Shown: positions 51,325 through 51,960 of the stretch, one piece after another
Layout of the letters: each line of letters opens with the position of its first letter
How positions within the stretch are numbered: the stretch's first letter is position 1
NCBI GenBank assembly: GCA_018896025.1
Contig: JAHIND010000004.1
Location: forward strand, 66,512-130,511
From: Pseudomonadota bacterium
GTDB taxonomy: Bacteria; Desulfobacterota; Desulfarculia; Desulfarculales; Desulfarculaceae
Length of the DNA stretch: 64,000 nucleotides
Direction of reading: 5' to 3'
Program-made: the position numbers and the translations under genes
The notes under the pieces: model-generated
The model's input: the letters and a program-made list of their open reading frames with translations, nothing else
What the model was told of the DNA's origin: nothing
Database searches by the model: none

Positions 51325-51960
51325 CTAGCGCAGGGCCGCGGCCAAGGCGTTCCTGGTGCGGTTGGCCACCGCGTGCACCGTGGTGCCAGCGATGGTGCCC
51401 AGGCGCCCGCGCCACCACTGCACGGCCTGCTCCAGAGCCTTAAGAGCCGCCGCGCTGTCTTCTCCCTCGGCAATGCGAAAAGCAGCCTCGACTCGCTGGA
51501 TGAACTCCAGGGCGCTCTTGTCGGCGGCTTTACCCAAGTCGTTGCCTCCGGCCATTTGACGAGCCAGATCCTGGTCTTCCCAAGCCCGCAAATCCAGGGA
51601 GCCCGCCTGACCGGCCAGACCGCCGAGGGTCAGGGTTTCCAACAACTGGTTGGTTTCGTAGCTCACCATCTTGAGCAGCATTTCTTGGGCACTTTGCACC
51701 TGCGCTTTTATCACAGACGTAACTATTTCGGTTATGCCCGACTTCACCGCATCCCAATAAGCGGCATTCTGTTCTGACAAACCATACTCTGCCAACAAGG
51801 GGCGCAACTTGTGCGAGGCCGCATCGGCCGCATTGCAAAGCAGGCCGGTGACGCGGGGCTCCCAGCGCTCCCGAAAGCGGAAGGTCTGGACCGCGAGCCC
51901 TTCTTGAATCATTAAGTCAAAATAGAGCGCTATGTCTCTCGCCGCCTGCTCCATGGTCAT
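51325..51960 (-). CDS. Hypothetical helical protein resembling the N-terminal half of a MuF/SPP1-gp7 head morphogenesis protein
   Basis: CAGGAGG RBS; ends RLGTIAGTTVHAVANRTR, resembling the R..TIARTE...A.N helix that precedes the Cys motifs in MuF. Confidence 0.5.
   Translation of the reverse strand: MTMEQAARDIALYFDLMIQEGLAVQTFRFRERWEPRVTGLLCNAADAASHKLRPLLAEYGLSEQNAAYWDAVKSGITEIVTSVIKAQVQSAQEMLLKMVSYETNQLLETLTLGGLAGQAGSLDLRAWEDQDLARQMAGGNDLGKAADKSALEFIQRVEAAFRIAEGEDSAAALKALEQAVQWWRGRLGTIAGTTVHAVANRTRNALAAALR

Follow-up and report, generated by a model that had tools for sequence, protein, structure and literature searches.

A chromosomal toxin module of Desulfarculaceae and relatives in which a MuF-type domain is divided between two genes in changed order

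Organization and genomic context of the locus

The window (the whole 64,000-nucleotide stretch of DNA analysed) carries a minus-strand module that reads, in gene order, as two small membrane protein genes, a terminator, a toxin gene, three membrane protein paralogs, and a stand-alone ORF here termed the N-half. The features are:

51325..51960, minus strand: MuF N-terminal helical domain gene (N-half), a stand-alone gene with a 211-aa ORF (from ORF and RBS)
52035..52298, minus strand: immunity-like paralog, copy 3, start taken at MRKN
52314..52583, minus strand: immunity-like paralog, copy 2, start taken at MRKN
52606..52869, minus strand: immunity-like small membrane protein, copy 1, 87 aa with ~3 TM segments (from ORF; paralog family D1/D2)
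52879..53529, minus strand: toxin gene, 216 aa, MuF C-terminal (MuF-C) part and PLA2-like domain (from Pfam, PHROG, and hhalign)
53652..53682, minus strand: terminator-like hairpin with T-run (inverted repeat I3), separating the toxin gene from the two immunity-like genes upstream
53790..54071, minus strand: upstream immunity-like paralog (orphan-immunity position), same layout in locus L003
54094..54357, minus strand: upstream immunity-like paralog (from ORF)

The toxin and N-half genes lie ~920 bp apart with separate start and stop codons, each preceded by its own RBS, and a gap of 74 nt separates the copy 3 immunity-like gene (52298-52035) from the N-half ORF (51960-51325). The sequence-only reading had placed a 211-aa ORF at 51325-51960, downstream of the toxin, and this ORF was present as described, including its C-terminal end ...WWRGRLGTIAGTTVHAVANRTRNALAAALR. 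The strong RBS that had been assigned to the 211-aa start also exists (AGGAGG, 51966-51961); the motif touches the first ATG and lies 6 nt ahead of a second ATG (51954), the start that it fits. Given this spacing and the N-termini of close homologs, all of which begin MEPAARD or MEQAARD, the true start is probably ATG 51954, resulting in a product of 209 aa beginning MEQAARD. The toxin ORF is open from GTG 53580 and its start is most likely GTG 53529, with GGGAGG 6 nt upstream and a product of 216 aa, the same choice being made in gene callers and orthologs. The toxin protein reads (M)ASKTQVKVVGFRWLSSRPGSGCEQCARWHEKEFYFQPQAGQLSTAEMPTPPLHPNCRC..., later ...WCGKYWSAGRD...ADDLDAACSGHDDCYELF..., and contains the motifs VKVVGFRW...CEQC...HPNCRC. 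Sequence inspection displayed no signal peptide in either the N-half or the toxin protein.

The module has a G+C content of 50-58% compared to 65-70% in its flanks and is bordered by an aldehyde oxidoreductase gene on one side and a porin gene on the other. No phage genes were seen in the window parts examined, and neither flanking direct repeats nor an integrase were found around the module. An identical 13,429-bp unitig spanning 51189-55000, with 0 mismatches and no joints, was identified in two unrelated sequencing runs and the window sequence itself was present in groundwater metagenomes, while a search for co-transcription found no RNA runs containing the module sequence. At 51144-51221, where the porin-like gene (50064-51218) reaches its 3' end, the assembly graphs of three runs branch, with raised depth and alternative continuations that suggest an end common to several porin paralogs or strains. 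Adjoining the module, the window encodes a DUF2975 membrane protein and a small HTH_26 regulator (49157-49915), a pair kept at the same position in loci L001, L003, and L028. Further window genes code for a bacterial eRF1-like protein (baeRF family 10; 40058-41185) and a Fic/DOC domain protein (61087-62229), both of types often tied to conflict systems.

The toxin and its immunity-like genes

Residues ~7-66 of the toxin correspond to the MuF C-terminal Zn/beta subdomain (CxxC...HPNCRC) and residues ~100-216 to a phospholipase A2-like domain (CG..W..G loop, DDLDAAC.GHDDCY). The latter aligns to the PLA2 active-site helix with the catalytic His-Asp dyad and a Tyr at +4, and among 17 diverse toxin sequences residues H143, D144, Y147, G110, W113, G116, D134, and D137 were invariant, as were the MuF-C Cys/His residues. 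The PLA2 signature is kept, including a Ca-loop-like CG..W..G, D..D...C..HD.(C)Y, and a later Asp. The toxin family profile matched 72 PDB chains that were PLA2s only (best E 3e-4), and a plain sequence search of the PDB likewise returned only PLA2 chains. The Pfam profile PF00068 scored 19-25 bits against the toxins, below its curated cut-off of 32.1 bits, and the domain is therefore termed "PLA2-like". Searching the fused protein against 50,697 phage records by tblastn gave two weak matches to the C-terminal half only and no phage MuF-PLA2 protein.

All 32 members of the toxin family and all loci examined carried the same PLA2-like domain and hence, the earlier idea of a helical adaptor or chaperone serving swappable toxin tips was unsupported as regards the tips. 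The variable part of the module is instead the immunity gene. The five paralogous 3-TM genes of the window (52035-52869 and 53790-54357; two upstream behind the terminator and three downstream of the toxin) share 66-76% DNA identity, and the presumed immunity proteins of the family are ~87 aa long with three hydrophobic segments and a WWVWPSFPLAF motif, occurring in 1-5 copies per locus. Copy 1 was without a Pfam or PADLOC match; its homolog is placed directly after the toxin in L001-L005, L008, L010, L011, and L028. Copy number varies even in close relatives, L003 having a single downstream copy and L032 a row of five. In a deeper branch, the gene between the toxin and the N-half codes for a PD40/Tricorn-type beta-propeller of 342-410 aa (L012:3950-4978, L014:3725-4957, and L015:10802-11965), presumed to be a second immunity type for the same PLA2-like toxin such that this position is occupied by either a 3-TM protein or a PD40 propeller.

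Between the window and L003, the toxins are 75% and the N-halves 90% identical (dS 1.0 vs. 0.32), and the greater divergence of the toxin may reflect faster turnover and evolution or recombination of the toxin-immunity part. The extreme C-terminal tails of the window and L003 toxins (L003:6427-7092) display no relation to each other.

Homology of the two genes to a single MuF protein

The sequence-only reading proposed that one MuF protein had been split between its TIARTE-type helix and the (Y/F)RW segment, and profile searches of the rejoined halves bear this out. The toxin alone scored 17.1 bits against PF04233 (Phage_Mu_F; curated cut-off 29.6 bits) and covered profile positions 60-111 only. 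Joining the N-half in front of it raised the score to 35.2 bits (E 2.3e-8), over the cut-off and covering positions 11-111, compared to 18.5-21.0 bits for four shuffles of the N-half, 18.2 for the reversed N-half, and 21.9 for the two proteins in their genomic order. The last 71 residues of the N-half alone scored 13.2 bits on positions 11-54. The same joining effect was found for the independent pair of L002 (45% identity), rising from 18.5 to 37.2 bits, and in the head-morphogenesis family phrog_241, where joining took the window pair from 24.9 bits to 41.7 and the alignment covered residues 51-277.

The N-half ORF by itself gave no significant match in Pfam, PHROGs, or PADLOC, and its family matched the Pfam MuF profile in one of 43 members (E 0.044) and a PHROG in three of the 43. 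Neither did the N-half profile match single gp7 or Mu F sequences significantly, although it was placed correctly on gp7, and the N-half HMM had zero matches at E<=0.05 in the N-terminal regions of ordinary unsplit MuF proteins (60 loci). Profile-profile comparison by hhalign used as reference ten aligned gp7-type MuF proteins of phages, whose genes each come right after a portal gene. On this reference the toxin family was placed at gp7 positions 210-274 (E 5e-5) and the N-half family at 131-202 with an E of 0.067, which is not significant by itself, while fused pairs gave an unbroken alignment across the junction (gp7 113-275, E 7e-6). The placements of the two families imply that the two genes cover adjacent, non-overlapping parts of MuF. 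The MuF motifs (the R..TIARTE-type helix, the (Y/F/K)xW strand, and (CxxC)...HPNCRC) occur in order and with gp7-type spacing, spread over two genes, and the break point falls in the loop that joins the TIA(R/G)T...N helix to the (Y/F)RW strand.

Predicted structures gave a consistent picture. AF2 modeled the N-half as five long helices with a pLDDT of 76, rising to 90+ with a deeper alignment, and the best Foldseek matches of this model in BFVD were almost all minor capsid, head morphogenesis, or MuF-like proteins, with weak E values of 0.02-0.8. The fused chain, modeled from an unpaired alignment, reached a pLDDT of 82 without inter-domain confidence and placed the break between a helix at 169-212 and a strand at 216-225. 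It had 19 BFVD matches at E<=1e-3, all of MuF type with ~280 aligned columns. Foldseek of the whole model against the PDB, a search dominated by the helical half, returned generic helical bundles only and so provided no solved MuF structure for comparison. Both pieces are homologous to MuF with a resemblance beyond chance, the N-half being assigned on the gain in score on joining, its position on gp7, and its predicted fold.

Conservation of the two-gene arrangement

A profile search with the N-half identified 62 clusters at the 50% identity level, nearly all of them stand-alone proteins of 200-219 aa with a common end point and none a full-length MuF. The toxin profile identified 32 proteins of 158-306 aa, of which none was unsplit and all began within ~8 residues of the (V/I)xGY/F-RW strand. 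Searches through 5.8 and 1.8 billion proteins turned up no full-length MuF-PLA2 protein. The N-half escapes annotation pipelines altogether, all its homologs carrying the label "hypothetical" and lacking a Pfam domain.

Gene neighborhoods were collected by exact look-up and by a scan of species-representative genomes. Of 25 informative loci, 20 had toxin, immunity, and N-half genes in this order and on the same strand, in varied chromosomal contexts and down to 21-28% identity, in agreement with the linkage of N-half homologs to MuF-motif genes that the sequence-only reading required; four more loci were cut by contig ends and left out of the 25. The MuF was encoded by two genes in the window and in every relative. 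Two of the 25 loci have a toxin without an N-half (L028 and L015/L037) and L001 an N-half without a toxin, while L032 is broken by a transposase and L045 retains only a PLA2 fragment. The unrelated gene in the place of the toxin in L001, a syntenic locus, codes for a 226-aa protein (L001:6412-7092) with no Pfam match and no MuF-C part, alongside two immunity genes and an intact N-half that is 59% identical. Frameshifts were observed in the toxin or N-half of L014 (2892-3696), L034, L039, L040, and L044, which could be assembly errors or decaying copies.

All named organisms were Desulfarculaceae, Desulfarculus, or Thermodesulfobacteriota MAGs, several genomes having two or three modules; the near-complete Desulfarculus MAG CAXXUK01, with contigs of 3.7 and 1.3 Mb, has two. 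Each of the three genomes with a toxin-only locus (JAIPEN01, JBMORH01, and CALERA01) also has a locus with both toxin and N-half, and L028 (Desulfarculaceae Tobar13.5m-G33) and L037 (the same as L015) are accompanied by a complete module on another contig of the same MAGs (L038 and L030). The N-half may therefore act in trans on such toxins. Comparison of the window with L003 indicated purifying selection on both genes, the N-half having a dN/dS of 0.19 (dS 0.32) and the toxin one of 0.17. In addition, N-half and MuF-C distances were correlated over seven pairs (mirror-tree r 0.92, exact Mantel p 0.002).

Capsid, portal, or terminase genes were not seen within 6-10 kb at any locus examined, including the surroundings of the window module and of L001-L005 and L012-L016, and the MuF genes consequently do not follow a portal gene directly. 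The flanks are chromosomal metabolic genes (aldehyde oxidoreductase, porin, hydrogenase, and others) instead of a prophage or temperate phage. The split is old and conserved and no recent accident, and the recurrence of the two-gene layout outside prophages in sulfate-reducer relatives supports a variant of a known toxin system.

Proposed mechanism and alternative explanations

The locus is probably a three-part chromosomal toxin module in which a head-targeting MuF domain of the SPP1 gp7/Mu F type underwent gene fission and a change of gene order. Its first gene (53529-52879) couples the small Zn-binding C-terminal MuF subdomain to a PLA2-like toxin, one to several genes for putative small membrane immunity proteins come next, and the last gene (51954-51325) codes for the N-terminal helical MuF domain. 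In phage, binding to the portal brings gp7 into the capsid (PMC6316719), a route that has also been proposed for toxins fused to gp7-like proteins (PMC6316719, PMC5576092, PMC5512222). By analogy to the gp7-portal interaction, the two proteins may associate non-covalently to rebuild a MuF unit that would target the PLA2 toxin to a carrier, such as a particle, whose genes lie elsewhere. The toxin would then attack membrane phospholipids of recipient cells and the membrane proteins would protect the producer and its kin from membrane damage. That the halves work together is suggested by their co-inheritance (r 0.92) and by the occurrence of toxin-only loci in genomes with a complete module.

The latter loci leave room for a trans-acting adaptor, and it is conceivable, if on the unlikely side, that the module is a hitch-hiker whose N-half docks on the portal of a particle encoded elsewhere (a prophage, a GTA-like element, or an infecting phage) and recruits any MuF-C-tagged protein, including the toxin-only products of the same genome. 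If so, PLA2 toxins would be packaged and injected even though their gene is not part of the phage, and MuF carrier binding and cargo tagging would be separated into two proteins.

The main rival reading is a role in defense, where domesticated MuF pieces serve as decoys or sensors that detect the portal of an incoming phage and then free or activate the PLA2 effector, causing abortive infection and death of the infected cell, with the membrane proteins restraining the effector. A phage-derived domain outside any phage, in a chromosomal non-prophage context with a G+C content below that of its flanks (0.50-0.58 vs. 0.65-0.70), fits such a role, as does the constant effector type that is usual in defense systems and unusual in polymorphic toxins. 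However, PADLOC gave no match, other defense genes are not adjacent, and the 1-5 small membrane paralogs, including the copies upstream behind a terminator, resemble the poly-immunity loci of competition toxins (PMC11699363), making defense a quite unlikely reading. It is improbable that the locus is an orphan cassette of MuF stub, toxin, and immunity gene retained so that it can recombine into a full-length MuF toxin encoded elsewhere, with the helical ORF as a functionless leftover. Toxins with only a MuF stub do exist in Clostridia (barnase/Barstar and ART; Pfam positions ~40/60-111) and so do toxin-only and N-half-only loci, but the N-half evolves under purifying selection (dN/dS 0.19 at dS 0.32), shares one end point across its 62 clusters, and holds its position after the toxin down to 21-28% identity, and the 5.8 + 1.8 billion proteins searched contained zero full-length MuF-PLA2 sequences into which such a cassette could recombine.

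The resemblance of the N-half to MuF might also be accidental, with ORF211 an unrelated helical protein such as a chaperone or a second immunity protein, as its lack of a significant sequence match to MuF profiles when taken alone would allow; long helical proteins readily draw weak structural matches, and the PDB gave only generic bundles. This is very improbable in view of the 17-19 bit gain on joining that was repeated in an independent pair and absent in five controls, the placement of the N-half on gp7 that stops 7 residues before that of the toxin, and the top BFVD matches that are almost exclusively MuF proteins. Next to no credence can be given to an assembly or rearrangement artefact, or a recent pseudogenizing break of one gene. 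The source is a metagenome and some relatives are frameshifted (L014, L034, L039, L040, and L044), but the same contiguous sequence occurred with 0 mismatches in joint-free unitigs of two independent runs, by which an assembly artefact was rejected, many MAGs from separate studies show the arrangement again, and both halves have an RBS, start, and stop of their own with no flanking repeats found. Two ways of rejoining the halves were likewise rejected. A split intein has no room for its halves, as the MuF helix forms the end of the N-half and only 6 residues of the toxin precede the MuF strand, and a circular or integrative element disagrees with the absence of flanking direct repeats and an integrase and with the separate stop and start of each half.

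Comparison with known MuF, PLA2, and orphan toxin systems

MuF toxins are common and their mode of action is poorly understood. MuF toxins with downstream immunity genes have been described (Jamet et al., 2017, PMC5576092; PMC11699363), of which only Apk2 and Bxa have been characterized; both are encoded in prophage head modules as one polypeptide each, and what the MuF part does in these toxins is given as unknown (PMC11699363). Similar to the MuF polymorphic toxins (PMC5576092, PMC11699363), the module has a toxin domain C-terminal to the MuF part, small downstream immunity ORFs (<150 aa), and poly-immunity arrays. Unlike them, its MuF is encoded by two genes with the N-terminal part last, there is no adjacent portal gene and it lies outside a prophage, and its toxin is PLA2-like, a type not listed in PMC5576092 or PMC11699363, and invariable within the family. 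The module therefore lacks three hallmarks of MuF toxins: a single polypeptide, a post-portal prophage position, and a variable tip. The hosts also differ, with Desulfarculaceae/Thermodesulfobacteriota for the module compared to Firmicutes or Bacteroidales for the MuF polymorphic toxins. With SPP1 gp7 and Mu gpF (PF04233) the module shares the RIARTE-type helix, (K/R)xW strand, and NCRC at the same spacing, although those are single polypeptides encoded right after a portal gene, whereas the module has two polypeptides and no portal gene. The Tox-PLA2 toxins (Zhang et al., 2012, PMC3482391) have the same C..HD.CY active-site helix and Ca-loop-like CG..W..G, but have been described as carrying RHS or filamentous N-terminal regions and being exported by T2SS/T6SS (PMC3482391), in contrast to the MuF part of the module toxin. 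The literature searched contained no description of a MuF split or permuted in gene order and none of a PLA2 linked to MuF.

A natural fission at the boundary of the helical and Zn/beta parts lets one ask which half binds the carrier and which tags the cargo, and also whether the system works away from a prophage. As predicted from sequence, the locus would add to the MuF-linked toxins a lipid-targeting PLA2-like toxin and two immunity types (3-TM and PD40 propeller).

Toxin-immunity cassettes that keep only the end of a conserved delivery domain are familiar as CdiA/Rhs orphans, which lie downstream of the full-length main gene and are usually without translation signals. The module likewise keeps the end of a delivery domain; unlike the CdiA/Rhs orphans, it has no full-length gene and its missing N-terminal part is a selected gene downstream. 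MuF-C stub toxins of Clostridia resemble the module toxin in having only the C-terminal MuF half, a non-phage context, and a downstream immunity gene, and differ in that no N-half gene was detected nearby, in the toxin-immunity pair, and in a ~40-residue leader before the stub. The existence of these MuF-C-only toxins without an N-half implies that the C-terminal half may not strictly need it. MuF stub toxins seem to be a wider theme. Loci L055-L105 represent a large family of ~200-aa Clostridia/Oscillospiraceae proteins in which a ~40-aa leader precedes Phage_Mu_F positions 61-111 (33 bits) and a Ribonuclease domain of barnase type; a Barstar gene comes next. The stub toxin and Barstar genes of L063 (5887-6483 and 6497-6817) are an example, and their neighborhood, the only one of these that was read, contained neither phage genes nor an N-half-like gene. 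A similar MuF stub is fused to an ADP-ribosyltransferase in L053.
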